Origin: Myxococcales bacterium SG8_38
GTDB lineage: Bacteria; Myxococcota_A; Polyangia; Polyangiales; Houyiibacteriaceae
Assembly: GCA_001303415.1 (NCBI GenBank)
Contig: LJTN01000010.1
Location: 2,140-66,139 of the forward strand
Reading direction: 5' to 3'
Length of the DNA: 64,000 bases
Positions 4,923 through 20,879 of this stretch are shown one piece after another (the stretch's first letter is position 1; every line of letters starts with the position of its first letter). The position numbers and the translations under genes are program-made. The notes beneath the pieces are model-generated. The model worked only from the letters and a program-made list of their open reading frames with translations, ran no database searches and was not told the origin of the DNA.

Positions 4923-5798
4923 TCAGTACAGGAGCTCGACCCAGCGGCCGCCCGCGGTGAGCTCGGCCTTGCGTCGCGCCCATTTGTCCTCTGAGCCGGC
5001 GATCTCGCTGAACGCCTGATCGAGCTCGTCGCGCATCTTTTCGAGCCCGGCCACGTACACGTAGGTGTTCGGTTGCTCGAGAAGCTTCCATAGCTCCTTT
5101 CCGCGCTGGGAGAGCGCGCCCTCCCAATCGATGGGAGCGGCCCAGGCGGGCCTCGGGCTCAGCGCCTTGAATGCCTGGAAGGTTTCCTTGTCGTAATATT
5201 GTGCAAAGTCGTCCCGTTCGTCATTCATGTAGAGGAGCTCGAGGCCGCTTCGAGCCCCATAGAAGAGCGTGATGGTGCCCTTCCAGTCCGGGACGTTCTT
5301 GTACAGGTGCTTCACGAAGGCCCGGAATGGAGCGATTCCCGTGCCAGTCCCGATGAGGATCAAGTTGGCGTCCATCTCTTCGGGAACGTCGAATGCCAAA
5401 CCGTATGGGCCGGACATGGTGATGCTGTCGCCGGGCGCCAAATCACACAGATAGTTGCTGGCGACGCCCGGATACTCCTCCCCGCTGTACTTGTCGACGT
5501 AGCTCGTGCGGCGAACGACGATCTTGATCCGGGGAAGCCCTGCGGCTTCGCGATCCGGAAGGTCGGCCACGCTGTAAAGACGAAAGTGATGCTCTTGCCC
5601 GAACTCCTTGGCCCCCGGCGCGAGCACGCCGACATTTTGGCCGAGCTCGAGCTCGAAGCCCGGCTTCTCAATTTCCAATGTCAGCTCGCGGACCTCGATA
5701 TCAGACGCTTCCGGCGTGATCCGCTCGCTGGCGACCACGGTGGCCTGGAACCGTCGCCGGGTGTCGTAGTCTTCAAGATGGGTGACTGCAGTATTCAT
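4923..5798 (-). CDS. Ferredoxin-NADP+ reductase, plant/plastidic type
   Basis: RLYSVAD (FAD), GVASNYLC, GTGTGIAPFR (NADP), YVYVAG, C-terminal Tyr. ATGA overlap with the upstream small ORF. Confidence 0.88.
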   Translation of the reverse strand: MNTAVTHLEDYDTRRRFQATVVASERITPEASDIEVRELTLEIEKPGFELELGQNVGVLAPGAKEFGQEHHFRLYSVADLPDREAAGLPRIKIVVRRTSYVDKYSGEEYPGVASNYLCDLAPGDSITMSGPYGLAFDVPEEMDANLILIGTGTGIAPFRAFVKHLYKNVPDWKGTITLFYGARSGLELLYMNDERDDFAQYYDKETFQAFKALSPRPAWAAPIDWEGALSQRGKELWKLLEQPNTYVYVAGLEKMRDELDQAFSEIAGSEDKWARRKAELTAGGRWVELLY

Positions 5799-6014: not shown

Positions 6015-6596
6015 CTAACCTCCAAGCCCCCCGAAGCCCATGAAGGTCACCGAAAGCAGCCCGGCGAGCATCAACGCCATCGCCGTGCCCTTCGTCACGT
6101 CTGGCACCTCCGCGAGATCGAGCTTCTCACGCAGGCCGGCCATGAGCACCAGGGCTAGGGTAAACCCGGCTCCTGCGCCAAGCGCGTAGACGATGGACTG
6201 CACGAAGCCATACCCCTTGTTGGTTTGAAAAAGCGCCAACCCGAGGATGGCGCAATTGGTGGTGATGAGGGGCAAGAAGATTCCGAGGGCGCGGAAGAGG
6301 GCCGGGCTGAACTTCTTGATGAACATCTCGACCAGTTGCACCGTAGATGCGATCACGGCGATGAACGAGATGAGCTTGAGGTACGGCGCGTCGATCGCGA
6401 CCAGCAGCGCCTGAATTCCGAAGGCACAGACGGAGCTCACCAGCATGACGAACGTCACCGCGCCCCCCATGCGCGTGGCCGTCTCGAGCTTCGATGAAAC
6501 GCCGAGGAAAGGGCAAATGCCAAGGAAGTACGCCAACACGAAGTTGTTGACGAGTGAGGCGTTGATGAAGATCGACCACAGGGACTCCTGATTCAT
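6015..6596 (-). CDS. rnfA: Rnf electron transport complex subunit A
   Basis: 193 aa polytopic protein of the RnfA/NqrE family (NNFVLAYFLGICPFLG, LPLITTNCAILG). GGAGG SD. Start trimmed from ORF 6015-7382. Confidence 0.93.
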   Translation of the reverse strand: MNQESLWSIFINASLVNNFVLAYFLGICPFLGVSSKLETATRMGGAVTFVMLVSSVCAFGIQALLVAIDAPYLKLISFIAVIASTVQLVEMFIKKFSPALFRALGIFLPLITTNCAILGLALFQTNKGYGFVQSIVYALGAGAGFTLALVLMAGLREKLDLAEVPDVTKGTAMALMLAGLLSVTFMGFGGLGG

Positions 6597-7249
6597 CGAG
6601 CTGCCTCCTCGGTGAGCGAGAGCGTGGCCGCCCTTTCTCTTTGGGCTTTGCGCTGCTTGATCCAGTTGAAGAGCAGCAGCCAACCGGCCAGCGTGAAGAA
6701 GCCCCCGCTCGGCAGAACCATCACGACCCAATCTTGAAAGGCATCGTGAAACAAGGAAACGCCGAAAAGCGACCCGGCGCCGAATATCTCCCGCACCGCG
6801 CCGATCGAAAAGAGGGCGAAGGCAAATCCGACTCCCATGCCCAGGCCGTCCATGGTGGATCGTGCGATCGTGTTCTTCGAGGCAAAGGCCTCGGCCCGGC
6901 CGAGGATCAGGCAATTGACCACGATGAGGGAGATGAAGGCGCCAAGCGCCTTGTAGAGGTCGAGGCTGATCGCCTGGATCACGTAGTCCACCAGGGTGAC
7001 GAAGGTCGCGATGACCAATATGTAGGTCGCGATGCGTACCTCTTTCGGAATGAAGCTCCTGAGCGATGACACCACCATGTTGGACATCACCAGCACGAAT
7101 GCCGTGGCCAAACCCATGGCCAGCGCGTTTCTCGCCGTGTTGGATACCGCCAAGGCAGGGCACATCCCCAGCACTTGAACGAACACGGGGTTGTCCTTCC
7201 AAAGGCCCTTGATGAACTCGTCCGTGGTGGTCTTGGTGGAGACTGCCAT
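6593..7249 (-). CDS. rnfE: Rnf electron transport complex subunit E
   Basis: 218 aa of the RnfE/NqrD family (NPVFVQVLGMCPALAVS, SLIVVNCLILGRAEAFA). GGGAGG SD. 4-nt overlap with rnfA. Confidence 0.93.
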   Translation of the reverse strand: MAVSTKTTTDEFIKGLWKDNPVFVQVLGMCPALAVSNTARNALAMGLATAFVLVMSNMVVSSLRSFIPKEVRIATYILVIATFVTLVDYVIQAISLDLYKALGAFISLIVVNCLILGRAEAFASKNTIARSTMDGLGMGVGFAFALFSIGAVREIFGAGSLFGVSLFHDAFQDWVVMVLPSGGFFTLAGWLLLFNWIKQRKAQRERAATLSLTEEAAR

Positions 7250-7252
7250 GGT

Positions 7253-7945
7253 CTACTCGCCTCCCTGGAAGTCCTGCAGATTGCGTTGGATGCGTGGAAT
7301 CCATTGCTGGGCGCTTTGGTTCAGGATGTTGGCAATGGCCTCCGAGGAGATCGTGGCGCCCGTGATGCCATCTACCTCCCATGGTTGCGTCTTGTTGCCA
7401 TGCCTGACCGGTACGATGGGATGCGCCAGGGACGATTGGTCTTGCGCCAGCGAGACGTCGAGGCGCTCGAAGTTCTCGAGGAAGCCGGGGTCAGTCTCGA
7501 TCTTGTCGCCGAGCCCCGGCGTTTCCTTGCTCTCGAGCACCTGCGTTCCAATGATGGCTTCGTCGGCAAAGGAGTAGCCGTAGATCAGGCGGATGACGTC
7601 CTGGTAACCCATGCCTTGAGCTTCCACCGCGAGGCCGACGAGCTTCTGGTCATCGTCGTAGCCCGCGTAGACCAGCGGCTCGCCGTCGCCGCCCGCGGCG
7701 CTCCCGTCTACGGGTGCGAAATCGCCGGAGTCGCGGAGGCGAAAGGTGGTACTGGCCGTAGCGTCAGGCAAAACCTGGAAGATGGCGCTCTGCAACGCCT
7801 CTGCCTTGTTGCGCTCGATGACCGGCCGTGTCGCTTGAAACACGCCCACGATGAGGAGACCGCAACAGACACCCACGCCGACCATGGCGCGGTACATGTG
7901 CCAGGTGCTGGTCGGCGCCGGGCTGGCGGGCAACGCTCGGCTCAC
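7253..7945 (-). CDS. rnfG: Rnf electron transport complex subunit G (FMN-binding)
   Basis: N-terminal TM, FMN_bind domain, flavinylation motif GITGATISS. GTG 7945 has AAGGAGG 7 nt upstream and overlaps the rnfD stop (GTGA). Alternative ATG at 7897. Confidence 0.85.
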   Translation of the reverse strand: MSRALPASPAPTSTWHMYRAMVGVGVCCGLLIVGVFQATRPVIERNKAEALQSAIFQVLPDATASTTFRLRDSGDFAPVDGSAAGGDGEPLVYAGYDDDQKLVGLAVEAQGMGYQDVIRLIYGYSFADEAIIGTQVLESKETPGLGDKIETDPGFLENFERLDVSLAQDQSSLAHPIVPVRHGNKTQPWEVDGITGATISSEAIANILNQSAQQWIPRIQRNLQDFQGGE

Positions 7946-8967
7946 GATGCGGCCTCCTTGGTTGCCGTGCCGTAAACCCGCGGCCGGAACCAGCGATCGA
8001 GGTGCGGGGTGACCGCGTTGCCGAGAAGAATGGCGTACATCACGCCCTCCGGAAGGCCGCCCCAGGTCCGGATCACCACGGTCACCACGCCGATCAGCGC
8101 TCCGTAGAGATAGCAACCGATCGAAGTCATGGGCGAGCCCACCATGTCGCTCGCCATGAACATCGCGCCGAGCATCAGCCCTCCCGAGAAGATCATGAAG
8201 ACCGGCGATGCATACCGGGTCGGGTCCACGAGATGGAGGGCGCCGCTCAGCACGAACACCGCGGCGATGATCGAAACCGGGATCCGCCAGTTCATCATGT
8301 TGCGAGCGATGAGATAGAGGCCACCCAAGATGATGAGGATGCTCGAGGTCTCGCCCGCCGAGCCGCTCGTGAAGCCCGTGGCGAGGTCAGCAACGGCGGT
8401 GGTTTCTCGGCTGAACTTCCACAGCGCGAGCGGGGTGGCGCTGGTGACGGCGTCGACCGTCGGCTCGGTGAAGGGCAAGGTCAAGGTGGACGACGGCAAC
8501 GAGGTGAAACGACCCGCGGTAAAACCAGCGATCCATGTGGTCATGGCCACGGGAAAAGCCGCCTGGAGCACGGCACGGCCCACCAACGCGGGATTGAACG
8601 TGTTGTAGCCCAAGCCGCCGAACAAGGCCTTGCCCATGGCCACGCAGATGACGCCTCCGACGGCAACCATCCACAGTGGAAGGCTCGGTGGAAGCGTGAG
8701 GCCGTAGAGGAGTCCGGTGATCGTCACCGACCAGTCTCCGATGGTGGTGGGCTTGCCCGTTGCGCGGCAGATGAGGTGCTCGGTCAACACGCACGATACC
8801 AGCGCCATCGAGAGCGTCAGCAGGCCGGCGAGACCGAACGCAAAGATGGCGAACGCCGTGACGGGAAGCAGCGCGAGCACCACGTTGAACATGATGCTGT
8901 CCACGCTGTAGCCGCTCAGGATGTGTGGCGAGGTGCGGATCTCGAGTGTTTTGCCCGGCGCCGGCAT
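7942..8967 (-). CDS. rnfD: Rnf electron transport complex subunit D
   Basis: 341 aa polytopic protein of the RnfD/NqrB family (TSPHI, NPALVGRA, VDAVTSATPL flavin site, FMASDMV). ATG 8967 overlaps the rnfC stop. Trimmed from ORF 7942-9813. Confidence 0.93.
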   Translation of the reverse strand: MPAPGKTLEIRTSPHILSGYSVDSIMFNVVLALLPVTAFAIFAFGLAGLLTLSMALVSCVLTEHLICRATGKPTTIGDWSVTITGLLYGLTLPPSLPLWMVAVGGVICVAMGKALFGGLGYNTFNPALVGRAVLQAAFPVAMTTWIAGFTAGRFTSLPSSTLTLPFTEPTVDAVTSATPLALWKFSRETTAVADLATGFTSGSAGETSSILIILGGLYLIARNMMNWRIPVSIIAAVFVLSGALHLVDPTRYASPVFMIFSGGLMLGAMFMASDMVGSPMTSIGCYLYGALIGVVTVVIRTWGGLPEGVMYAILLGNAVTPHLDRWFRPRVYGTATKEAAS

Positions 8968-9983
8968 CAGGTGGCTCCCGTCTTGCCGGCCGCCGCCTTG
9001 CGCACTGCGGCCTTCGCGGCACGGAACTGCTGCACCAGCGGGATGTGCGAGGGACAGACGAAAGAGCAGGAGCCGCATTCGAAGCAATCCATCAGGTTGT
9101 GTCGCTCGGCCATGACCGAGAACTCTTGGTTGGCTGCCAGCCTGCCTAGAAGCGAGGGGTCGAGGAAGATGGGACAGGCGTCGACGCAGTAGCCGCAGCG
9201 GATGCAGGGGTAGACCGGGCTGTGGGTTCGCTCCGCGGCGGAGTCGGTGAAAGCGGTGACGCCCGACGTGCCCTTGGTGATCGAGATGTCCAGGCTGGAG
9301 GCGGCTCCCCCCATCATCGGTCCACCGAGGAACACACGGTTCACGTCTTCTTCGACCCCCACGTGCTCGAGCAGGAACCGGAGCGGCGTGCCGATGGGGA
9401 TGCGGTAGTTGCCTTTCCGCTTCACGGCAGGCCCTGTCACGGTGATCACCCGCTCCTGGATGCCGCGGCCCAACGGAAGGAGGCGGCCGATCTCTGCGGT
9501 CGTGGCCACGTTGCAACACAGCGCATGAATGTCCAGAGGTAGCCCCCCGGAAGGCACCTCCCGGCCGAGAAGCGCTGCGAACAGCATCTTTTCGGCCCCT
9601 TGAGGGTACTTCACTCGAAGGAGCTCCACCGACCCGTTCAGGTCGCCTGGGAACGTGGCGCGCAGATGCTCCGCTGCATCGGCCTTGTTTGCTTCGACGG
9701 CGATGATGACCTTCTCTGCGCCTGACACTTTGAGTAGGTAGCGGATGCCCACGAAGATGTCGTCGCTTTGCTCGAGCATCACTCTGTGATCGGTCGTGAG
9801 GAACGGCTCGCATTCCGCGCCGTTGATGATGAGCGTGTCGACGAACTTGCCTTCGGGAACTTTGAGCTTGACGTGTGTTGGAAAGGCGGCGCCGCCGAGC
9901 CCCACCACGCCGGCCTCTTGAATCGCAGCGATGATCTCATCGGGCGTCGACGTATCGAGCGGGCAGGGGGTGCCGTCCTCCAC
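8967..9983 (-). CDS. rnfC: RnfC C-terminal module (NADH/FMN-binding fold plus 2x[4Fe-4S]); fragment downstream of in-frame stops
   Basis: GLGGAAFPTHVKL, INGAECEPFLT, CIRCGYCVDACP, CFECGSCSFVCP. The only possible start is GTG 9983, which has no nearby SD. Confidence 0.8.
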   Translation of the reverse strand: MEDGTPCPLDTSTPDEIIAAIQEAGVVGLGGAAFPTHVKLKVPEGKFVDTLIINGAECEPFLTTDHRVMLEQSDDIFVGIRYLLKVSGAEKVIIAVEANKADAAEHLRATFPGDLNGSVELLRVKYPQGAEKMLFAALLGREVPSGGLPLDIHALCCNVATTAEIGRLLPLGRGIQERVITVTGPAVKRKGNYRIPIGTPLRFLLEHVGVEEDVNRVFLGGPMMGGAASSLDISITKGTSGVTAFTDSAAERTHSPVYPCIRCGYCVDACPIFLDPSLLGRLAANQEFSVMAERHNLMDCFECGSCSFVCPSHIPLVQQFRAAKAAVRKAAAGKTGAT

Positions 9984-10013
9984 TTCTTGTGTGGATCCCG
10001 GGAGGGGCTCCTA

Positions 10014-10316
10014 TTACACGGCCGGCACCATGCGGCCGCTGATGCTGGGAGCAAGCGCGATCTTCCGAACGATGCCCGAAGCCGAAGCGTGCATGGAGAC
10101 CGACATGAAGCCGTCCGGGCGCGCAATCCGTTGGCCTCGCCACACCTCTTGGCCTTCTTCCACCACGGGTATCGACGGCGCCCCCATGTGTTGGACCAGG
10201 GGAATGATCAGAAGCGGTGCGAAGGGAAATTGGCGAATGGGCAGCCCACTCGTCTCGTCCTTCGACTCCGGCGGGTGCACCCCATGCCGGAACGTCTTCA
10301 TCCCCAAGAGTCTCAT
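10014..10316 (-). CDS. rnfC: RnfC N-terminal barrel-sandwich domain fragment, ending at TAA-TAG
   Basis: FRHGVHPPESKDET, IIPLVQHMGAPSIPVV, GQRIARPDGFMSVSMHASASG match the RnfC/RsxC N-terminus. Same frame as 8967-9983. Confidence 0.75.
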   Translation of the reverse strand: MRLLGMKTFRHGVHPPESKDETSGLPIRQFPFAPLLIIPLVQHMGAPSIPVVEEGQEVWRGQRIARPDGFMSVSMHASASGIVRKIALAPSISGRMVPAV

Positions 10317-10338
10317 CGGTTTGGTCCGAGGTCGTTTC

Positions 10339-13300
10339 TCAGTTGTACTTCTCGCCGCGCTTGATCCACTTCTCGATGCCTTTTTCGCTTCGGTTCCTCG
10401 GCAAGCCGGGGTGGATGACCCGAGCGGTGCATCGCTCTGCGGCCTTCACCAAGTCTTTGTACGACCCTGCCTCGGCATTCTTGATGAAGGCTTTCTTATC
10501 CGCGTTGTACGCGAAGATCTTGGAATTGATCTGGATGCACTCGTCGCAGGCGGTGCAGTTCTCGGTATCGATCCAGGGAGCGAGGTACCCATCCCCAGCA
10601 GCCGCGGCCGACGCCTTCGTGGCTGCAGGTGTCGCCGCGGACGTAGCAGTCGTCGCTACCGTCACGGGCGCTGCAGCGGCCGACGCGATGGCGGGACCGG
10701 GTGAGTCAGCTCCCATGCCAGCGGACCCAGCTCCGGACTCGGCGGCCATCTGCATGAGCTCGGATACGAGCCTGCTGACCACGTCCTGACGAGCCTGTTC
10801 GACCAGCGATTCGGTGGAGGGTTGATCTTGGCCGGCCAGAGATCGGAGCAAGGTCCAGAAGTCACGCCGGTCCTCGCAGGATTCCACGATGGGCTGCGCC
10901 ACCAGCAGTCGCATCAAGTGCCCGTCCTTGTCCACCATCCACACGTACGGAAAATGGCCCTCGCGGTCGTCCTGATCCATGTCTAGGAATTCCGCCAAAG
11001 GCACCATGTTCTCGTTCCAGGTGTCCGGCGGCGCAACACGGAAGTGCTTGCGGAATCGAGTCTCGGTGATGGCGAAGTCCGCAAACGTGAGCGGCAGCTC
11101 CATCTCCTTGTCGACGCCGTCCTCCTTGTACTTGATCCTGTAGGTGGGCCAGTCCTGATCCATGTCCGGATTGCCCTCTAGGTCGAAGCACTCTTGCGGC
11201 GTTTTCCCCGCATCGGGGTTGTATCGAAAAAGCGGATACGCCCTGGACTCCACCGCCAGCTTCGACTGGGCCGCGCTCATGTCGTCGCCGATGCCGTGCT
11301 CGGGTTGGCAGTTGCTATAGAGGTTGAACAGCGCGGGCCGGCGGGCCTTGAGGCCTTGGATGAAGCCTTCAATCATGTGACTCGAATGCGCGATGGTGCT
11401 CTGCATCACGTACGTGGTGCGATGCGCCATCCCGATGAGACCGATCTCCTTTCGTGGCTCCTGCTTGCCCTTAATGGCCTTTCCATACTGAGCCATGTCC
11501 GACACCTGGCCGATGAAACCGGAGGTGCATGCCTGTCCGCCCGTGTTGGAGTAAACCTGCGTGTCGACGACCAGCACCTTGATCGGCTTACCGGACGCCA
11601 TGAGTCGCGAGAGGTTTTGAAAGCCGATGTCGTACATCGCGCCATCGCCGCCCACCGCGACCACCGGCGGGCAGAGCTCCCACTCTTCGTCGCTGAACTG
11701 GCGCCAGTCGAAATAGGTGAAGAACGAATCGTGCTCGACGGGATTGTACTTGCTCTGCAGCTCGAGCTCGGCGATGCGAATGGCTTTGAAGCCATCCGCC
11801 ATCTTGGCCATGTGCCCCTCGAAGATTCCCATTGCCATGGAGGGCGAGTCTTGGAACAAGTGATTGGCCCAGGGGAACGGGTAGGGGTTGAATGGGTAGG
11901 TGCTGCCCCAAACCGAGGTGCAGCCGGTGCTGTTGATCATCCCCATGCTGGTACGGCCGCGGCCCGTTGTTCCTTCGGTGTACTTCCACCTGAGCCTTTC
12001 CAGATCGGCCACGAGCTTGGTCATGCGTCGAAGCCAGTCCTGATCGATGGGCTGAGCTCCTCCCATGCGTTCGATGCGCTCGGCGATCGCAGAGAGTGTG
12101 ACGTCCCGATCGCCGATGTCTTGCATGATCTTCGCCATGACTTCGGGGTCGCCGACATCGATCTCTCCGGCCAGCCGTAGCTGGATGTGCTTCTTCAGCC
12201 GGTCGATGAGGTCGGTGACGTGGCTCAGATGCTTGGTGATCCGCGCCTGCATCAATGCTTCGACGGTTGCGACGAAGAGGTGGATCGCCGTCTTTTCGGA
12301 ACAGCCGAGACACGCGCCGTCGCCGCTGGTAAACGGCAAGTAGTTGCTCTTGTCGAGCAGGATCGACTCGAGGGTTCCGATGCCTTCTTCCAAATCATCG
12401 ACCCGGATGTACTTCTTCGGGGTGGAAGGAAGATCGGTCCACAGATCCCAGTGGTCGCGAAGTCGTTGAACCGACTCCTCCGTCTGCCTCATCGAGCGCA
12501 GCGCATCGTCGTTACATACCTCGACGCACTCCATACACCCCTTGCACGTGTAGGGGTTCACGGTGATCGAAAGCAGGCCCCCGCTTCCGGACTGTTCCTG
12601 CTCGGGGAGGGTGTAGTGGGGTCGAGTCAGGGCAAACTGGAACCCGTTCAGCTCTTCCTTGAAGTACCCGAGCTCCTTCTTGAGCACGTCCCGCTCGACG
12701 CCTTGAAGCTCGCTTTGCGTAACGGTCTGCTCCATCGCCTGGTCCAGCAGGACTGACACGGAGTCCGTCTCCTTTGACGCCCTGAAGAGAGCATGGAGGT
12801 TGCGCTCCATCACTTTGGCGGCCTTGGGCAGATGCTTGATCTCCGGCGCGTAGCCGTTCTTGCGCACCCGATTCACGACGGTGTCGAGCACTTGACCCAC
12901 CTCGTTCACCAATCCCGGCAGCGCGGTGTCCGGGCAGACCGTGTAGCAATCGCCGCAGGCGGTGCAGTTCTCGGGGACCCACTGAGGATGCTCGAAGCGG
13001 ATTCCGGTCATGTCCCGGAAAAGCGCCGAGGAGGGGGGCATGATGCCCAGCCCGATGAAGGGGTCGGCGAGGTTGTCGTTGCCCATGCCTCGCACGTAAA
13101 AGCTTCCGGTTTGCTCCCAGAAGCGGTGGATGTCGGTCATGGGCGCCTTGCTCTGAGGAAGAGATTTCACCATGAGCGGAAGCTTCAGTCCGGCGCGCTT
13201 TCCCTCGGGCCGGACCTCGTCGATGGGCCCCGGGACGACCTCTCGGACCTCGTCGAAGCCGCGCTTCACAACCCGCATGTTGTCGTCGACGACTCTCTTG

Positions 13301-15354
13301 CCCTTGGAGCCGAACTTTTCTTGGAGCTGGTCGTGGATGGCGTCCAAGAGCTGCTCGTCGGTGAGCCCGGCCTGCTTCATGATCGGCGAGACGGCGAAGA
13401 ACGCGCCCTGGAATGCGATGCCCTGCATTCGGAGCTGCAGATCGGGGTCGGTGGCCTCGTCGCGCGCGATCTTGAAGCCATCCAGGTAGTAGACCTTGAT
13501 CTTCTTGTCGCGAATGATTCGCTGATAGACGGGCGGGATGCTCTCCCACATCTCTTTGGGCGACGCCTTGTCTCCCTGGATGATGAAGACGCCGCCTTCC
13601 TTGAGGCCGGCAAGCGCGTTGGTGTGGCCAAACACGTTCGGGTCCGGTGACAGCACCACGTCGACGTAGAAATACTCGCAGTTGACCTTGATCGGCTCTG
13701 GCGCCGCCGACAGATAATACGTCGTAGGCTGTCCCTTCTTCTCGGAGCCGTACTTGGGGTTCGCCTTGATGTGATAGCCCAGCAAGTCGAACAGCGTCAT
13801 CGCCAGGTTCTTGCCGGTGGTGATGGCGCCCCAGCCGCCGACGGAGTGAAAGCGAACCGTGATGCTGTCCTTGGGCATCAGGTTGGGGTTCTCCGAGCCT
13901 TTCACCACCAGCTCTTTGACCTGAGGATAGGACTCCTCGATCGTCTGTTGATGGATCTCCTGCTTCGGCGTGATGGCCTGGTCCCGGACGAAGTCGATCG
14001 ATAGATAGAAGAGCTTCTTCCGGGCCCCGTCATCGAGCATGTTCTCCACGGCGCCCACCAGGCCTTCGGGTTGCAGATCGCGGCTGCCCATCCCGAAGGA
14101 GCCCGAAAAGAGCGGAGGCGCGTCGTGGAGCGACGTATAGGCAGCAAGCTCCGGGTACGGTGGGTTCTGCGAATCCCTCCCGTTTTCGAGGCACTTGCTC
14201 ACCGTAGCGCGGATCTCCCGCATGAGAGGCAGGTCGGCCGCGAGTGGTTGATCGAGCCGCTCGAGCACCGTGACGCCCCGCTTGCCCCTCAAGATGCGTC
14301 CGATCAGGTCGCTCGGAAACGGTCGGAACATGACCATGTCGACCACGCCCACCTTGAGCCCGCGGGTCTGGCGAAGATAGTCCACCACTGCCTCGGCCGA
14401 TGGGACCATACTTCCCTGGCCCACGATGAGGTAGTCCGCATCGTCGACCCGATACGTCATTACGCGCGCATAGCGACGGCCCGTCAGCGCGTAGTATTCC
14501 TCGAACGCCTGGTCGGTGAGCGCCTGGATGTGATCGAAGAAAAACGGCCGCTGCGCCGCCACGCTCTGCATGTAGGAGTCCTGGTTCTGCACCAGACCGG
14601 ACATCACCGGATTGTCCACGTCCCACAGCAAGGGAATGCGCCGGCGAGTTTCGCCGTATATGATCTTTTGCGCCGCGGTGGGTGTCTCGATGACGTCGTC
14701 CGGACGCCCGAGGTATTCCGCGATGAGCTCGCGCTCAGGCACCATGAGCGATTCGATCAAGTGCGTGGTCAGAAACCCGTCCTGGGCGATGATTCCCGGG
14801 GTGAGAGACAGCTCTGCGATTTTGTGGCTGATGACGTTCAAATCAGCCGCTGCTTGCGCGTTTTTGGCGAACAGTTGGAAGAAGCCCGTGTCATCGACGC
14901 AGTGGTAGTCGTCGTGTCCGGCATGCACGTTGAGGGTGGCCTTGGTCATGGCCCGCGCACCGATGTTGAGGACGTACGTCAGCCGCTTGCCCGCCGCGGC
15001 GTAGAGCGATTCGTGCATGTAGGCGATGCCCTGACCCGACGAGAAGTTCGCGGCGCGCATGCCCGTCATGGACATGCCGGCCGTGACTGCCGCCGCGGCG
15101 TGCTCGCCCTCAGGCTCGATGAAGATCAACGGGCGCCCCGACACGTTGATGTGTCCGGCTGCGGCGGCCTCCGCCCACAGCTCGCCCATTTGTGTCGACG
15201 GCGTGATCGGATAGGCGCCCGCGGCGTCGCTCGATTCACGCTCGCACATGATGACCGCGGTGTTGCCATCGAGCGCGTCCCGTGTGCCGGGGTACTTGAA
15301 CTGGCTCTGGGCGTCTTTCGCGATGTTCTTTTTGCCGAAGAATCGTGGAGACAT
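10339..15354 (-). CDS. nifJ: Pyruvate:ferredoxin (flavodoxin) oxidoreductase, single-polypeptide NifJ/YdbK type, enlarged (1671 aa) with a C-terminal ferredoxin domain
   Basis: PFOR domains I-VII are colinear: YPITPST, GGWGAITTGK, CTACGDCYTVCP and CKGCMECVEVC, GDGACLGC, GGDGAMYDIG...VYSNTGGQ (thiamine pyrophosphate, TPP). These are followed by an Ala/Thr-rich linker and CTACDEC...C. ATG 15354 (MSPRFF) lies within ORF 10339-15366. Confidence 0.9.
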   Translation of the reverse strand: MSPRFFGKKNIAKDAQSQFKYPGTRDALDGNTAVIMCERESSDAAGAYPITPSTQMGELWAEAAAAGHINVSGRPLIFIEPEGEHAAAAVTAGMSMTGMRAANFSSGQGIAYMHESLYAAAGKRLTYVLNIGARAMTKATLNVHAGHDDYHCVDDTGFFQLFAKNAQAAADLNVISHKIAELSLTPGIIAQDGFLTTHLIESLMVPERELIAEYLGRPDDVIETPTAAQKIIYGETRRRIPLLWDVDNPVMSGLVQNQDSYMQSVAAQRPFFFDHIQALTDQAFEEYYALTGRRYARVMTYRVDDADYLIVGQGSMVPSAEAVVDYLRQTRGLKVGVVDMVMFRPFPSDLIGRILRGKRGVTVLERLDQPLAADLPLMREIRATVSKCLENGRDSQNPPYPELAAYTSLHDAPPLFSGSFGMGSRDLQPEGLVGAVENMLDDGARKKLFYLSIDFVRDQAITPKQEIHQQTIEESYPQVKELVVKGSENPNLMPKDSITVRFHSVGGWGAITTGKNLAMTLFDLLGYHIKANPKYGSEKKGQPTTYYLSAAPEPIKVNCEYFYVDVVLSPDPNVFGHTNALAGLKEGGVFIIQGDKASPKEMWESIPPVYQRIIRDKKIKVYYLDGFKIARDEATDPDLQLRMQGIAFQGAFFAVSPIMKQAGLTDEQLLDAIHDQLQEKFGSKGKRVVDDNMRVVKRGFDEVREVVPGPIDEVRPEGKRAGLKLPLMVKSLPQSKAPMTDIHRFWEQTGSFYVRGMGNDNLADPFIGLGIMPPSSALFRDMTGIRFEHPQWVPENCTACGDCYTVCPDTALPGLVNEVGQVLDTVVNRVRKNGYAPEIKHLPKAAKVMERNLHALFRASKETDSVSVLLDQAMEQTVTQSELQGVERDVLKKELGYFKEELNGFQFALTRPHYTLPEQEQSGSGGLLSITVNPYTCKGCMECVEVCNDDALRSMRQTEESVQRLRDHWDLWTDLPSTPKKYIRVDDLEEGIGTLESILLDKSNYLPFTSGDGACLGCSEKTAIHLFVATVEALMQARITKHLSHVTDLIDRLKKHIQLRLAGEIDVGDPEVMAKIMQDIGDRDVTLSAIAERIERMGGAQPIDQDWLRRMTKLVADLERLRWKYTEGTTGRGRTSMGMINSTGCTSVWGSTYPFNPYPFPWANHLFQDSPSMAMGIFEGHMAKMADGFKAIRIAELELQSKYNPVEHDSFFTYFDWRQFSDEEWELCPPVVAVGGDGAMYDIGFQNLSRLMASGKPIKVLVVDTQVYSNTGGQACTSGFIGQVSDMAQYGKAIKGKQEPRKEIGLIGMAHRTTYVMQSTIAHSSHMIEGFIQGLKARRPALFNLYSNCQPEHGIGDDMSAAQSKLAVESRAYPLFRYNPDAGKTPQECFDLEGNPDMDQDWPTYRIKYKEDGVDKEMELPLTFADFAITETRFRKHFRVAPPDTWNENMVPLAEFLDMDQDDREGHFPYVWMVDKDGHLMRLLVAQPIVESCEDRRDFWTLLRSLAGQDQPSTESLVEQARQDVVSRLVSELMQMAAESGAGSAGMGADSPGPAIASAAAAPVTVATTATSAATPAATKASAAAAGDGYLAPWIDTENCTACDECIQINSKIFAYNADKKAFIKNAEAGSYKDLVKAAERCTARVIHPGLPRNRSEKGIEKWIKRGEKYN

Positions 15355-15385
15355 CGAAATCACCAATCAGGCTCTCGCCTCTTGA

Positions 15386-16252
15386 CTAGGTCGGGGCGTC
15401 GCGAAGCGTGCCCTTACGAATGATCTTCTTGGCTGCCGGCCCCTTCACCGGCCCAACCTTGGCATCGATCCAGACGATAGCCCCTGTGGGGCATCGTTCA
15501 ATTGGAGCGCGGGTCTGATGTGGCCTGCTGTAGTCCACCACCGGAAGGTTGTTCCGGATGGTCACGAGCCCCGGGGGCGCGTCCATCTCGCAGCGGCCGC
15601 AGGCGGTGCAAGCGACCTCGCAGTCTTCAAGGATGTCGTCGCCGGCTTCGAGAGAGCTACAGGCGACCCATAATCGATGACTCTGCTTGTGGAGGGAAAA
15701 CAGGTCCTTCGGGCATGCCTCGACGCAGTCCCCGCACGCGGTGCACTTGGCCTCGTCGACGACCGGAAGGTCGTGCGCGTTCATGTGGATGGCATCGAAG
15801 TCGCAGACTTCGTAGCAGTCTCCGAAACCGAGGCAGCCCCAGAAGCAGCCTTTGCCACCGCCGGCCACCCGAGCAGCTGCGCCGCAGCTCTGCTCCCCGT
15901 GGTATGTGGCGTGGTTACGGGCGACGTTCGTGCCTCCCGCGCAGGCGAGCCGAGCCACCAGCTTCTCCTCTGCGCCGACGTCGACGCCCAAGAATCTCGC
16001 GAGCTCTGATCTCTCCTCGTCGGAGCTCACCGTGCACTTTCCCGGTAGCGCGTCGCCCCGGATCAGGGCTTCGGCGAACGGGCGGCACCCGGGGAAACCG
16101 CATGCGCCGCAGTTGGCGTGGGGAAGCATGTCCTCCACCACGTCGATTCGCGGGTCCTCGTAGACGTGGAGCTTCTTGTTCGCCAGGACCAACGCCGTGG
16201 CCAGGATGATTGTGAGTCCGCTGAGGGCGGCAACCGCCGTTAGAAACAGCAT
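15386..16252 (-). CDS. rnfB: Rnf electron transport complex subunit B (polyferredoxin)
   Basis: N-terminal TM (MLFLTAVAALSGLTIIL), CGACGFPGCRPFAEA Fe-S domain, then CTACGDCVEACP and CTACGRC ferredoxin motifs. Trimmed from ORF 15386-16495. Confidence 0.85.
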   Translation of the reverse strand: MLFLTAVAALSGLTIILATALVLANKKLHVYEDPRIDVVEDMLPHANCGACGFPGCRPFAEALIRGDALPGKCTVSSDEERSELARFLGVDVGAEEKLVARLACAGGTNVARNHATYHGEQSCGAAARVAGGGKGCFWGCLGFGDCYEVCDFDAIHMNAHDLPVVDEAKCTACGDCVEACPKDLFSLHKQSHRLWVACSSLEAGDDILEDCEVACTACGRCEMDAPPGLVTIRNNLPVVDYSRPHQTRAPIERCPTGAIVWIDAKVGPVKGPAAKKIIRKGTLRDAPT

Positions 16253-16257
16253 GAGAG

Positions 16258-17739
16258 TCAGTTTTGTGGTTCGATGCCGGTCAAGCGTGCAACGAGCTTG
16301 CGCACCGCGGAGGCCACCGCAGCACGCTCGCGGCTCGTCGCGTCCTTCTCCATGTTCTGCCGCAGGCTTTCGATCTGTGCGTCTCGCTCGGCGCCGAGCT
16401 CCCTCTGCAGCGTCGTCCGGGTGGTGTTCACGTGAGGATTGTCGATTCCCGAGATCTCCCGGAGCGTCTGCCACAGATGGAGGCGCTCCGCACACTGTGC
16501 CGCGAGCTTACGGGAAACGACCTTGCGAACGATGGTCCCCTCCTCGGCGGCAAGCGAGATGAAGGGGAGCTTGCCCACCTGCTGGTGTCGCGAGAGCCTG
16601 AGAAAGTCAACCAATGGAACGAGCGTGTCGGTGCGCTCCGGCGGGTCGGCGAGCTCCGTGGCGAGCTCGGGCTCGGAGGCGGCGAAGTGCGCCAACGTGA
16701 AGGGCTCATCGACTTCGACAGGCTCTCCCTGAGAATCACGGCCGGTGAGCTTGTCCGTGGTCCAAAGGACATCCACCGAAGGATTCGAGGAGAGATCGAA
16801 GCACATGACGAATCGGTCGTCGCGATCGGGATCGTACACGCACATCGGAACGGCTCGGGCACGGACGGCCCGCTCCGCGCGTGTTTGAAATGCATTCTCC
16901 GCTTCGCCGTGCCGCGGGCAAAACACCGAAATCACGCCCGGCCGCGGAACGGTCAGCGCCTGGGAGAGCTGCGCCTGAAAGCCAGATGCGGCCGAATGGG
17001 TCTGAAGTAAGTAGACGCCGCGCATGGCCAGGGGCAGCGTTTCGATGGTCATCCTCGAGGGCACGGCGGTGCCTCCGGCTCCCGATGCTGCCTCGCACAC
17101 GCTCGACCGGAGCGCGAGGACCTTGATTGGCATGCCAGTTTCGAGCAGCGCCATGACACTGCGCAGCCGCGCGCCGTCGCAGCCATCCAGGCGCGCGATC
17201 ACCAGAAACGGAGGACAGGCTCGAAGCTCCCCGGGCCCCAGCTGCCGCCAGTCGAAGTCGGCAAAGCCCGCATCGTGGACTTGGGTATCGTACTTGGCGC
17301 GGATCTCCAGTTGGGCGATCCGCACGGCCCGAAAAACCTGGGCCAGCTGGTTGAAGTGCGCCTCGGCGCGCTCATGAATTTCACCATGGTTCGTGTCGAG
17401 CTCGATGAGGGCGCGATCGAGGGGAACGTCCGGCCACGCCTCCTTCAGCTCAACGAGCTTCGGAATGAGCTCTCGCACGCGTACGAGCCGCTCGGGCGGC
17501 ATCGCCCGGGAGCGCGTGCTCTTTCCGAGCACCTGGGACAACGAATCGACATCGAGGCTCGCGGCAGCAAGAGGCCCGAGCGCGCTCTGCAAGCGGTCCG
17601 GCTCGTGACCGTGGCGATGGTACTCGTCGAGGCGGAGCAGGTTTTCGAGCCCGTCGACGGTTTCGGCCAGAGTTTCGCCAAGGGCGGCGCAATGGCGGCG
17701 CCAGACATCTGCGGCGGGTTGGAGGATCTGCTCTTTCAT
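16258..17739 (-). CDS. PFOR domain VI/VII-like protein lacking TPP and Fe-S motifs (hypothetical)
   Basis: 493 aa, colinear with residues ~1030-1508 of the adjacent PFOR (FRAVRIAQLEIRAKY vs FKAIRIAELELQSKY; FADFDWRQL vs FTYFDWRQF; MPIKVLAL vs KPIKVLVV; LVPLVDFL vs MVPLAEFL). GGDG...NTGGQ is replaced by ARLDGCDG...SSV. Confidence 0.75.
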   Translation of the reverse strand: MKEQILQPAADVWRRHCAALGETLAETVDGLENLLRLDEYHRHGHEPDRLQSALGPLAAASLDVDSLSQVLGKSTRSRAMPPERLVRVRELIPKLVELKEAWPDVPLDRALIELDTNHGEIHERAEAHFNQLAQVFRAVRIAQLEIRAKYDTQVHDAGFADFDWRQLGPGELRACPPFLVIARLDGCDGARLRSVMALLETGMPIKVLALRSSVCEAASGAGGTAVPSRMTIETLPLAMRGVYLLQTHSAASGFQAQLSQALTVPRPGVISVFCPRHGEAENAFQTRAERAVRARAVPMCVYDPDRDDRFVMCFDLSSNPSVDVLWTTDKLTGRDSQGEPVEVDEPFTLAHFAASEPELATELADPPERTDTLVPLVDFLRLSRHQQVGKLPFISLAAEEGTIVRKVVSRKLAAQCAERLHLWQTLREISGIDNPHVNTTRTTLQRELGAERDAQIESLRQNMEKDATSRERAAVASAVRKLVARLTGIEPQN

Positions 17740-17752
17740 GGCTGGACGTGGG

Positions 17753-18712
17753 TCAGGTGACGGTGTAACGGTCCATCTCGGCCTCCAGACGCCGAAGGAA
17801 GGTCTGATGGTCCGGTCGATCCTGGCGTTGCCATCGGATCTCTTCGTAGGCGGGGACGTCGGGGTTCTGATACACGAGACCCATGGGGGCCGGGTCCGCG
17901 GTGACCGCCACCCGCTGCGCCTCGTTGATATCGCGATGATCGTGGGCTTGCACGGCGCCGCGCTTGCGGAGCAAAGGGTGGATGGGGATACCATCCGCGT
18001 GCTCGAGGAACACCACCGGAAAGTTCAAGCCGCCCTCGCCAAAGGCCTTGGGCATGAACACCGGGCAACGCTGGAGGATGCGGACGAAGGAAAGCCCGTG
18101 ATGGTCCCACGCCTTGTCGATCGTCTCGTCGAGATGCGCGGGCAGCCAGGTGGCGGTCTGGGCCACGAAGGAAATGTTGGTCATGCCCATCACGGCGCTG
18201 AGCGGATTCAACGGGTGAAGATAGGTGCCTCTCGGGGTGGTGTTGGTCTTCCATCCGTCCGGCGTCGTGGGCGATGCCTGCATTTTGGTCAGCGCATAAA
18301 CTTCGTTGTCCAGCACCAACACCACGGCGTTGATGTTGTAGCGGATGGCGTGCAACCAATGGTTGCCGCCGATGCTGAAACAGTCGCCGTCGCCCATGAT
18401 CACGATGACGGGGAGCTCAGGACGCGAGAGGCGGACGCCGGTGGCGATGGGCAGAGCGCGGCCGTGGATTCCGTGGAACCCGTAGGTCTTCAAATAGTGG
18501 GGCAGGCGGCTCGAGCAGCCGATGCCGGACACCGAAACGACGTTTTCCGGATCGACGTTGTTCTTTCGTAGCACGCGTTGGAGCGCTGCCAGCACACCGT
18601 GGTCGCCGCAGCCCTTGCACCAGCGGGGCGGCTCGGCTTCGTAGTCTTCGAGGGAATGCGTCTCGATCGCGCACACCTCGAGAAGGCTTTCCTCGGCAAG
18701 CATGGATACCAT
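17753..18712 (-). CDS. korB: 2-oxoacid:ferredoxin oxidoreductase beta subunit
   Basis: WCKGCGDHG, GIGCSSR, IVIMGDGDCFSIGGNH...LDNEVYALTK (TPP motif). GAGGGAG SD. ATGA overlap with korA. Confidence 0.9.
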   Translation of the reverse strand: MVSMLAEESLLEVCAIETHSLEDYEAEPPRWCKGCGDHGVLAALQRVLRKNNVDPENVVSVSGIGCSSRLPHYLKTYGFHGIHGRALPIATGVRLSRPELPVIVIMGDGDCFSIGGNHWLHAIRYNINAVVLVLDNEVYALTKMQASPTTPDGWKTNTTPRGTYLHPLNPLSAVMGMTNISFVAQTATWLPAHLDETIDKAWDHHGLSFVRILQRCPVFMPKAFGEGGLNFPVVFLEHADGIPIHPLLRKRGAVQAHDHRDINEAQRVAVTADPAPMGLVYQNPDVPAYEEIRWQRQDRPDHQTFLRRLEAEMDRYTVT

Positions 18713-20619
18713 CAGTTCACTCCCTCGTTTGCGGCGCGCGCGGGGCCCGGAGCTGCCAGGGCCGGCTGAACGTCAAGGACGCGTTTGATTTCGTCTAGGA
18801 TCTCCACCGGCATATAGGGGCGTCCGGGAACCTTGGCGAAGCAATCGACGTCGATCAAAGTCGCCGCGCGCAAAAGCCAGGCCAATTGGCCGTAGCGGCG
18901 GTTTTCTTCCGTGATGAGAGGGTCGCTCCAGTCGTCGCTGTAGTTGAGCTCCACGGTGGTGACTCGCCGAAATCTCCGGAAGATGTTCTTGAGGCCAGGA
19001 GGCAGGGGGCTCAAAAACTGAATGTGGACCGAGGAAACTGCGAGGCCCTCGGCACGCGCCATGTCCACGGCTTCTTCGACCGCACCCCGAGTGCTTCCCC
19101 AACCCACTAGCAGAAGGTCGCCCTCCGAGGCTCCGTGTACGGTCGGCGGCTTGAGGCTCTGCTGCAGGGTGGCGAGCTTCCGGCTGCGCATGGCATGGCC
19201 GCGCTCGTTCCGCTCGGAGTCGTAGCAAGCCTTGCCGTCGCGATCGTGGTTGAGTGACGTCGTCACGCCCATTCCGCCCGGCTGGCCGGGAATGAGGCGT
19301 TGCGAAAGCCCCGTGGTTGGATCCCAGTCATAAGGAAGCGTTCCGAGGGGGACCGGGCTGAGGTCGAGCGGGGGACGCGGTGGGGTTTTCGAGACATCGG
19401 GACGATCGAAGAGCTGCTGACCAGTGGCGAGATTGGCGTCGGAAAGAACGATCACCAACATTCGGAGCTCCTCCGCGATCTTCCGCGCAACGGACAAGAT
19501 GTAGTAGCACTCTTCGACGGTGCTCGGTGCGATGACCACCTTGGGTGCATCGCCGGGCGCCCCGTAGAGCGCGTGGAGCAGATCCGATTGCTCGATCTTC
19601 GTGGGCAACCCGGTGCTGGGCCCGCCTCTCTGCACATCGACGATGACCAGTGGTGTCTCGGTCATCACCGCCAGGCCCTGGAACTCCGTCTTTAGGGCCA
19701 TACCAGGCCCCGAGGTGATGGTCAGGGCGGTCTTACCGGCGTAGGACGCGCCCAAGGCCACGCCGATCGCGGCGATCTCGTCTTCGGCCTGATGCACGAA
19801 TCCGCCGAAGTCTTCGAAGATCTCGGATAAGGAGTGCGAAGCCGAAGTCGCCGGGGTGATCGGGTACATGGAACAGAGCTCGAACCCAGCGGAGATGGCG
19901 CCAAGGGCGAGCGCGGTATTGCCGTTCATCGCGACTTTCGGCACTTCGCTCTGCGAGGAAGGGATTTCGAAGCACTCCTCGAGGTGGGCCATTCCGTATT
20001 GATGACCGGCGGCCGCAAGCTTTACCGCGACCTCCACGACCTGCTGAGTCTTGTCTTTGAAGATGCCGCGTATCACCTCGTCGAGCACGTTCGGGTCTTT
20101 GCTGTAGAGGGCGCATAGAAGGCCCACCGCAAACATGTTCTTCCCGCGTTGCGCGTCTTCGACGTGACGAAGGGTCTCCTTTTCCAAGGGCACTTCAATG
20201 ATCTTCGCCGCTCCGGAGCGGAATCGGTCGAGCACCTCGCGATAAGATCGTCGATACTGCTCCATCTCGTGGGTCGCCCATTGATCGTCGATCAGCACGA
20301 GAACGTCATCGGCCAGACTATTTGCCTCGAGACGCGAGAGCAGCGCCATCTCGTTGAAAGCCAGCACCACGTTCGCACGGTTGCCCGCATTGGTGACCCG
20401 GCTTCGCTCGGCAAGGCGGATTCGATTGCCGCTCGCGCTTCCGGTGGTGTGGGGTGGAGGTCGAATCTCGGACGGAATGATCTCCACGGTCCAAAGACCG
20501 TTCCCCGCCTTGGCGCAGAGTTGGGCAAAAGCGACGGCTGCTTTCTGGGCGCCTTCGCCGGCGTCACTGACGATCTCGAGTGTGTGCTCTGGGAGGCGGA
20601 TTCGGCGCGGGCCGGGCAT
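18712..20619 (-). CDS. korA: 2-oxoacid:ferredoxin oxidoreductase alpha subunit (gamma-alpha fused)
   Basis: N-terminal POR gamma domain (GEGAQKAA), then alpha/Pyr domain (MYPITPATS, QAEDEIAAIG, SGPGMALK). ATG 20619 is preceded by GGAGGA. Trimmed from ORF 18712-20673. Confidence 0.9.
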   Translation of the reverse strand: MPGPRRIRLPEHTLEIVSDAGEGAQKAAVAFAQLCAKAGNGLWTVEIIPSEIRPPPHTTGSASGNRIRLAERSRVTNAGNRANVVLAFNEMALLSRLEANSLADDVLVLIDDQWATHEMEQYRRSYREVLDRFRSGAAKIIEVPLEKETLRHVEDAQRGKNMFAVGLLCALYSKDPNVLDEVIRGIFKDKTQQVVEVAVKLAAAGHQYGMAHLEECFEIPSSQSEVPKVAMNGNTALALGAISAGFELCSMYPITPATSASHSLSEIFEDFGGFVHQAEDEIAAIGVALGASYAGKTALTITSGPGMALKTEFQGLAVMTETPLVIVDVQRGGPSTGLPTKIEQSDLLHALYGAPGDAPKVVIAPSTVEECYYILSVARKIAEELRMLVIVLSDANLATGQQLFDRPDVSKTPPRPPLDLSPVPLGTLPYDWDPTTGLSQRLIPGQPGGMGVTTSLNHDRDGKACYDSERNERGHAMRSRKLATLQQSLKPPTVHGASEGDLLLVGWGSTRGAVEEAVDMARAEGLAVSSVHIQFLSPLPPGLKNIFRRFRRVTTVELNYSDDWSDPLITEENRRYGQLAWLLRAATLIDVDCFAKVPGRPYMPVEILDEIKRVLDVQPALAAPGPARAANEGVN

Positions 20620-20879
20620 GGGCTTCCTCCGATTGGTGGGAGAGCATGTATCACGAGCGTGCCGGGGTCCCAAGCCGGGCGCTCCCCGCGCCTCCGGCCG
20701 GGACGCGCGGCGGAGCCCTCACACATGGGGATGATGGACCCCCGTTGGTTGTGAGGCCGATGACATCAGCGGCCCTCTCGACGAAGGAAGCCGTCGCTTT
20801 TGTGCTGCGTAGTTTTCGGTTTTGCGAGAGCATCGGACCTTCCCCCATTCATCGCCGAGCAAGTGCCCCGGTCAGACAG

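Follow-up and report, generated by a model that had tools for sequence, protein, structure and literature searches.

The question raised by the locus described here is what a protein with no recognisable domain does between korB, which encodes the beta subunit of a 2-oxoacid:ferredoxin oxidoreductase (OFOR), and rnfB, a gene of the Rnf ion pump. The locus lies in a stretch of 64,000 nucleotides (nt) from Myxococcales bacterium SG8_38 (assembly GCA_001303415.1, contig LJTN01000010.1, positions 2,140 to 66,139 of the forward strand), which as a whole we call the window, and the gene, which we call X, is an open reading frame (ORF) of 493 amino acids (aa) on the minus strand at 16258-17739, stop codon included, starting with MKEQILQ. 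A longer reading of 578 aa (to 17994) was rejected, since it overlaps korB and homologs give it no support. X is part of a tightly packed minus-strand operon with the order korA-korB-X-rnfB-long PFOR-rnfC-rnfD-rnfG-rnfE-rnfA-FNR-like gene, where the long PFOR is a pyruvate:ferredoxin oxidoreductase of 1675 aa. The korA and korB genes overlap (TGATG), 13 nt separate korB from X and 5 nt separate X from rnfB, in agreement with the place between korB and rnfB that a first-pass annotation, made from the sequence alone, had given to the gene. We favour, with moderate confidence, the explanation that X is a pseudo-enzyme acting as an accessory subunit or adaptor of a KorAB-type clade, which would link KorAB to the PFOR/RnfB electron path.

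Comparison of X with the neighbouring PFOR by BLASTP aligned residues 126-439 of X to residues 1183-1520 of the PFOR with 29% identity over 346 columns (E=2e-46), and a profile-profile alignment by hhalign, in which 85 X homologs were set against 20 long PFORs, extended the match to X 8-435 and PFOR 1034-1515 (probability 100%, E=6.9e-55). The colinear alignment to PFOR residues ~1030-1508, which the first-pass annotation had made by eye, is therefore statistically significant, and every motif pair that it listed is present in the BLASTP alignment. The sites at which the PFOR binds its cofactors have gone from X. In the hhalign alignment the PFOR-invariant GGDG (1239-1242) lies opposite ARLD (182-185) of X, and Asn1274, the Mg ligand in the NTGGQ of the PFOR, lies opposite Ala217; across the 85 homologs the positions of this thiamine pyrophosphate (TPP)/Mg motif are variable and the motif is lost in all, so that its proposed replacement by ARLDGCDG...SSV held and the profile alignment brought no intact TPP residues to light. 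The cluster-ligand cysteines, likewise claimed not to be conserved, are also lost in all 85 sequences, and proved to be deleted (the Cys1149 loop of the long PFOR), absent together with the N-terminal part of domain VI (C1019/C1022) or unconserved in the X family (the position of C1353). We found no CxxCxxC motif in X and no cluster-binding Cys motif in the window protein, and its own 'CDG' and 'FCPRHG' residues are not conserved among the 85 sequences. The same tests on the neighbours found both the long PFOR and KorB intact. Compared with the definition of a single-chain PFOR (TIGR02176), X shows homology to domain VI and lacks domains I, II and III (POR_N, PFOR_II, POR), the thiamine diphosphate (ThDP)/Mg2+ motif GDG-x(24-31)-N and the Fe-S ligands.

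Scans of X against Pfam (even at E<=1) and NCBIfam returned no domain or family, neither TPP_enzyme_C (PF02775) nor PorB_KorB (TIGR02177) being among the hits, and a profile of the family searched against all PDB sequences gave no match and reached no solved PFOR. The fold link of X rests therefore on an AlphaFold2 model, built from the 85-sequence alignment with a predicted local distance difference test (pLDDT) score of 87.8 and a predicted template modelling (pTM) score of 0.78, and on its Foldseek ranking, in which domain VI of the Moorella and Desulfovibrio PFORs came first (E=4e-5, probability 1.0 for 6cip), followed by OFOR beta subunits (9bt4_C, 5exd_F) and then by other ThDP enzymes. 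The segments of the model are listed in Table 1. At the end of the last helix the closest relatives of X and the long PFOR continue with a flexible linker and a single-cluster ferredoxin domain, neither of which is present in X. The label 'domain VII', which the first-pass annotation had also applied, was not established, for there was no PDB sequence match and the long PFOR itself aligns to solved PFORs only up to residue ~1396 (as measured on 6CIN).

X is a member of a conserved family. Its homologs of ~493 aa number more than 130, share 44-80% identity with X and are all designated 'hypothetical'; they come from Myxococcota, from Verrucomicrobiota (Opitutales, Puniceicoccaceae, Oceanipulchritudo) and from Planctomycetota (the cultured strain Novipirellula herctigrandis CA13). 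The nearest relative in public data is a locus, L003, in a metagenome-assembled genome (MAG) of Polyangiales (Myxococcota); its X is 80% and its neighbouring genes are 93-95% identical to those of the window. Between these two X genes dN/dS is 0.107/0.571 = 0.19, and 26 columns are invariant among the 85 sequences; X is under purifying selection and is a functional gene, not a decayed remnant. Being the homolog of an enzyme, having lost the cofactor residues family-wide, keeping the predicted fold and remaining under purifying selection, X answers to the description of a pseudo-enzyme that it had been given at the outset. Its designation as a paralog of the neighbouring PFOR stands as far as homology is concerned, but not in the sense of a recent copy: a recent local duplication was rejected because identity to long PFORs is 27-31% in all lineages, and the family is ancient and widespread.

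An exhaustive profile search with the X family, made on representatives of clusters at 50% identity, returned 2071 of them with E<=1e-3, of which 908 reached E<=1e-30. The X-type proteins fall into length classes of about 335, 493, 600, 750, 850, 1190 and 1300 aa, the TPP motif is absent from all of them, and their sequences suggest dead copies of the long PFOR that were truncated at the N-terminus. The ~335-aa homolog, which corresponds to X residues ~3-320 (hhalign probability 97.2%, E=3.7e-11), occupies the identical korB-rnfB slot in Gemmatimonadota, Acidobacteriota and some Planctomycetota. In the literature we found nothing on the X family, on such a third KorAB subunit or on a PFOR inside rnf operons; the X superfamily is large and undescribed, with no Pfam or NCBIfam model, solved structure or paper found. 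The name KorC is already taken by the gamma subunit.

The surroundings of X were compared in 145 related loci from genome and metagenome collections, annotated by BLAST against the window proteins. Among the 69 X genes having at least 3.3 kb of upstream sequence, korB lay directly upstream in 64, and in four others korAB was upstream but parted from X by 1.2-3.3 kb of extra sequence, which makes korAB an upstream neighbour in 68 of the 69; in a single locus it was absent. The linkage was seen in Myxococcota, Verrucomicrobiota, Planctomycetota, Fibrobacterota, Elusimicrobiota, Gemmatimonadota, Acidobacteriota and Proteobacteria, and it is independent of nearby rnf or PFOR genes: korA-korB-X stands alone in Novipirellula and Opitutaceae, and in Elusimicrobiota and Fibrobacteraceae rnf genes are followed by korA-korB-X. 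Since the linkage to korAB is near-obligate while rnf and PFOR genes come and go, we conclude that the conserved partner of X is KorAB rather than the PFOR or RnfB. Comparative genomics, through this linkage and through the distribution of ferredoxin domains described below, supports the earlier suggestion that X is a structural or docking subunit for KorAB or an adaptor to RnfB. Gene order and sequence make it quite likely that X is a non-catalytic subunit associated with KorAB, to which it would bind physically.

The contigs with a spacer between korB and X are the closely related metagenome contigs L071, L075, L078 and L079 (L070 is listed alongside), with X proteins of 837-856 aa; together with L077, where X has no korAB within 8 kb upstream, they are the only exceptions to korB-X adjacency. 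Two further MAG contigs carry an apparent KorB-X fusion (L015, an 819-aa ORF at about 9016-11473) and a split X (L038, 2657-4145). Because the frame changes fall inside otherwise conserved genes, we read both as probable assembly frameshifts.

A second regularity concerns a tethered ferredoxin. At their C-terminus most X classes carry, after a helix and a low-complexity linker, a single-cluster ferredoxin domain (PF13370), and the long PFOR ends in the same way. This domain is absent from the 493-aa clade and from the 335-aa form, its Cys motifs occurring only in relatives of 600-1300 aa. In 23 loci, the window being of this type, an X without ferredoxin is accompanied by an intact rnf-embedded PFOR (NTGGQ, CxGC and TGCSS present) that has its own tethered ferredoxin. 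In another 12 loci an X with ferredoxin is accompanied by an rnf-embedded PFOR-like protein which is TPP-dead and has neither the proximal-cluster ligands nor the C-terminal ferredoxin, the two clusters of domain V being kept. None of the 35 loci was mixed, each cluster having exactly one tethered ferredoxin (Fisher p=1.2e-9, calculated on loci not corrected for phylogeny). We also derived a neighbour-joining tree of the shared region, using a hidden Markov model built from the 493-aa clade and simple distances, and used only nodes with 96-100% bootstrap. Because in this tree the 493-aa clade groups with ferredoxin-bearing forms of 601-604 aa (Fibrobacteraceae, Elusimicrobiota) at 100% bootstrap, the loss of the ferredoxin in the clade of the window is most likely secondary. 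The 493-aa ferredoxin-less clade also has a motif of its own, LDEYHRHGH, which is nearly invariant there and occurs neither in the long PFOR nor in the short or the ferredoxin-bearing forms; HRHGH might be a candidate metal- or phosphate-binding site gained in this clade.

We propose the following role for X. The gene derives from a copy of the C-terminal third of the Rnf-linked long PFOR, comprising the helical insertion, the second half of the TPP fold and the C-terminal extension, and with its ligands gone the product should no longer bind TPP/Mg or an Fe-S cluster. X would supply KorAB with a surface module of the long-PFOR type that KorAB lacks, and this module may serve as a platform on which the [4Fe-4S] cluster of KorB exchanges electrons with RnfB, with a tethered ferredoxin or with both. 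The ferredoxin is held on a flexible leash by X itself in most relatives; in the clade of the window, which has most likely lost leash and ferredoxin, the sole tethered ferredoxin is that of the intact long PFOR encoded two genes downstream, and for this reason KorAB-X would share the PFOR/RnfB outlet into Rnf. Where the cluster is of the other type, KorAB would be the sole active enzyme and give TPP and the proximal cluster, while the dead PFOR-like protein would contribute its two domain-V clusters and X its tethered ferredoxin, so that the parts together would rebuild a PFOR-like electron path with specificity for 2-oxoglutarate. We hold this mechanism of docking and a shared outlet, to which the gene and domain patterns point, only tentatively, and rate it somewhat below an even chance. 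It would be bolder still, and in our judgement is rather unlikely, that KorAB-X and RnfB are joined on Rnf in one physical assembly with the rnf-embedded PFOR or with its TPP-dead derivative, in which PFOR-derived pseudo-enzymes act as scaffolds and Fe-S wires and a single leashed ferredoxin shuttles the electrons. If such an assembly existed, the oxidation of pyruvate and 2-oxoglutarate (or, in the reverse direction, their synthesis) would be tied directly to the ion-translocating reduction of NAD+, with no soluble ferredoxin pool in between.

Several observations weigh against the explanation of X as an accessory subunit on the electron path to Rnf. The counts behind the ferredoxin complementarity are counts of loci and not of independent evolutionary events. 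In at least nine clusters of the form rnfB-PFOR-rnfCDGEA, korAB-X is missing from the 5 kb upstream, hence PFOR-Rnf does not need X. Conversely, and this is the chief weakness, the ferredoxin-less X of Opitutales and Novipirellula occurs with korAB alone, with no rnf or PFOR gene within 10 kb, which means either that the role of X is intrinsic to KorAB or that its partner is encoded elsewhere. The short form of Gemmatimonadota has no C-terminal extension, and the core function must consequently reside in the helical region and the pseudo-PP half-domain (the PP domain being the TPP-binding fold). Finally, in the window itself rnfC (about 8967-10330, minus strand) contains tandem in-frame stops, TAA TAG at 10011-10016, where six related Myxococcota loci have Tyr-Leu (PAVYLEP); the frame is otherwise intact and 87-96% identical to the six relatives. 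The stops could reflect a real inactivation, a split RnfC or a sequence error, and the Rnf complex may thus be defective in this genome or assembly.

Other explanations of X were weighed against the same evidence. The C-terminal extension known as domain VII of the Desulfovibrio africanus PFOR stabilises the dimer and shields the proximal cluster from oxygen, and X could by analogy be a protective or stabilising cap whose pseudo-PP fold and C-terminal extension wrap the cluster region of KorB and confer oxygen tolerance or stability without docking any partner. Such a cap would suit the stand-alone korAB-X trios of Opitutales and Planctomycetota, the lack of redox cofactor ligands in X and the host lineages, which are largely aerobic or facultative. 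It leaves unexplained, however, why most relatives carry a tethered ferredoxin and why there is strictly one ferredoxin per cluster, and the sequence comparisons revealed no similarity to domain VII of D. africanus; we regard it as improbable. The argument that X is the decayed, functionless remnant of a duplicated PFOR gene has the loss of the cofactor motifs in its favour, but it is effectively refuted by the low dN/dS, the length conserved in homologs from three phyla, the invariant columns and the confidently predicted fold.

Pseudo-enzymes often regulate their active paralogs, and X retains half of the PP fold together with surface motifs specific to the long PFOR, which would fit a regulatory decoy that takes the place of KorB on KorA, or interferes with the pairing of PFOR protomers by competition, and so tunes the activity or direction of the 2-oxoglutarate:ferredoxin oxidoreductase (OGOR) or the PFOR. 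The tight and apparently stoichiometric operon position directly after korB suggests instead a constitutive subunit, and X, having no N-terminal half of the PP domain, could not replace KorB like for like at the KorA interface, which makes a decoy very doubtful. Marginally less probable again is a new ligand-binding or catalytic function, involving for instance CoA, a nucleotide or a metal bound through HRHGH, that would tie X to KorAB metabolically and not physically. The clade-specific His-rich motif speaks for it, as do the many invariant polar residues (H41, R42, H43, H45, R140, E145, K149, Y150, H155, D156, R211, R295, D303, D305 and N319); most of the conserved residues, however, are shared with the catalytically normal long PFOR, which argues against a new active site, and no family or structure match points to another activity. 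A KorAB accessory subunit remains the explanation that we prefer.

The remaining genes of the cluster have features of their own (Table 1). In the long PFOR the two-cluster ferredoxin domain (domain V) is split by about 120 aa and domain VI has an insertion of ~100 aa; the protein scores far under the TIGR02176 cut-off, and its likely start is the ATG at 15354 and not the TTG at 15366. The arrangement rnfB-long PFOR-rnfC was seen in at least 45 loci (Myxococcota, Gemmatimonadota, Acidobacteriota, Planctomycetota). Of the top 120 matches to a long PFOR from a planctomycete, those that were named all came from MAGs of Gemmatimonadota or Planctomycetota. In other lineages the slot between rnfB and rnfC holds a second, dead kind of PFOR of 1100-1560 aa, without NTGGQ, CxGC/TGCSS and the C-terminal ferredoxin and with the two CxxCxxC clusters of domain V kept. 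Both kinds of PFOR-like gene occur together in a single locus, L091 (4652-17807), which comprises korA and korB, an X of 812 aa lacking ferredoxin, a long PFOR that is intact and has its ferredoxin, rnfB, a PFOR-like protein of 1524 aa that is TPP-dead, and rnfC. In at least 10 other loci rnfA is followed by a homolog of the FNR-like gene (43-83% identity), and in L126 and L028 (Opitutaceae) such a homolog lies directly upstream of korA; the gene may be a further conserved component of the module.

Table 1. Coordinates of X, its segments and the surrounding genes (window positions unless a locus is named)
Feature	Position	Strand	Description
FNR-like gene	4923-5798	minus	FAD_binding_6 and NAD_binding_1; directly after rnfA
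rnfC-rnfD-rnfG-rnfE-rnfA	about 6015-10330	minus	Rnf genes; tandem in-frame stops at 10011-10016 in rnfC
Long PFOR	10339-15366	minus	1675 aa, catalytically intact; embedded between rnfB and rnfC
rnfB	15386-16252	minus	Start codon 5 nt past the X stop codon
X	16258-17739	minus	493 aa; TPP-dead and paralogous to the C-terminal third of the long PFOR
X residues 435-493	16261-16437	minus	Long C-terminal helix, ends in conserved LTG(I/V)(E/D)P
X residues 301-434	16438-16839	minus	Beta-rich extension at the C-terminal side, also present in the long PFOR (motifs YDPD, FDLSSNP, LWQTLREISG)
X residues 126-300	16840-17364	minus	Degenerate second half of the TPP-binding (PP) fold
Lost TPP/Mg motif site	17083-17196	minus	ARLDGCDG...SSVCEAAS in place of GGDG-x31-NTGGQ
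X residues 1-125	17365-17739	minus	Long-helix region, homologous to long-PFOR insertion 1034-1135; Cys1149 loop deleted here (AlphaFold2, hhalign)
HRHGH motif, X residues 41-45	17605-17619	minus	Within LDEYHRHGH
korB	17753-18712	minus	OFOR beta subunit; TPP motif and cluster cysteines intact
korA	18712-20673	minus	Gamma-alpha fusion subunit; real start probably slightly downstream of the first TTG
Dead PFOR-like genes	L060 3083-6397; L062 13841-17596; L064 13567-18186; L063 1-2739; also L067-L069, L074, L089, L092, L107, L116		Second kind of PFOR-like gene, other lineages

KorAB enzymes of two subunits are regarded as complete in their alpha-beta form and as users of free ferredoxin. A conserved and near-obligate third gene implies that a large clade of KorAB, spread over many phyla, works differently, and X, if it is a subunit as its sequence and genomic context suggest, would be a new subunit type for OFORs. 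An Rnf operon with its own giant PFOR, TPP-dead PFOR-like proteins in the same slot and the rule of one tethered ferredoxin point to a hard-wired link between 2-oxoacid oxidoreductases and the Rnf ion pump. For the channelling of low-potential electrons in aerobic or facultative bacteria with oxygen-sensitive ferredoxin enzymes the X family offers concrete, testable components, and a cultured host of X exists in N. herctigrandis CA13.

Among known systems, domain VII of the D. africanus PFOR resembles X only in concept, as something added C-terminally to domain VI for structure or protection, there being no detectable sequence relationship. The ferredoxin-type electron-transfer module of four-subunit OFORs (the delta subunit, PorD/KorD), or domain V of PFOR, resembles X in the role proposed here, that of a module joining the alpha-beta core to its electron partner, and close relatives of X bear PF13370; it is not homologous, however, the X of the window has no cluster cysteines, and the relatives have one cluster on a flexible linker and not a packed two-cluster domain. 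With the OFOR beta subunit (PorB/KorB; PF02775, TIGR02177) X shares the fold class, the PP domain of ThDP enzymes, and its gene adjoins a genuine korB, but X has no HMM match to it, no TPP motif and no [4Fe-4S] ligands, and consists only of the second half of the fold, to which ~125 aa of helices and a C-terminal extension of ~190 aa are added. Of single-chain PFOR/NifJ, X has neither domains I-V nor the leading half of domain VI, and it is without the TPP/Mg motif GDG...N, the cluster cysteines and the C-terminal ferredoxin of the long PFOR. Domain VI of these enzymes, for which 6CIN and 1B0P are solved structures, is nevertheless its best match in fold, and its nearest counterpart is the uncharacterised subfamily of long PFORs (~1650-1700 aa, between rnfB and rnfC), with which it has the motifs RIA-LE---KY----HD, F-W-Q, YDPD/YNPD, FDL--NP and LW--L in common. 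X is a clean example of a ThDP-enzyme domain recycled as what would be a pseudo-enzyme subunit.

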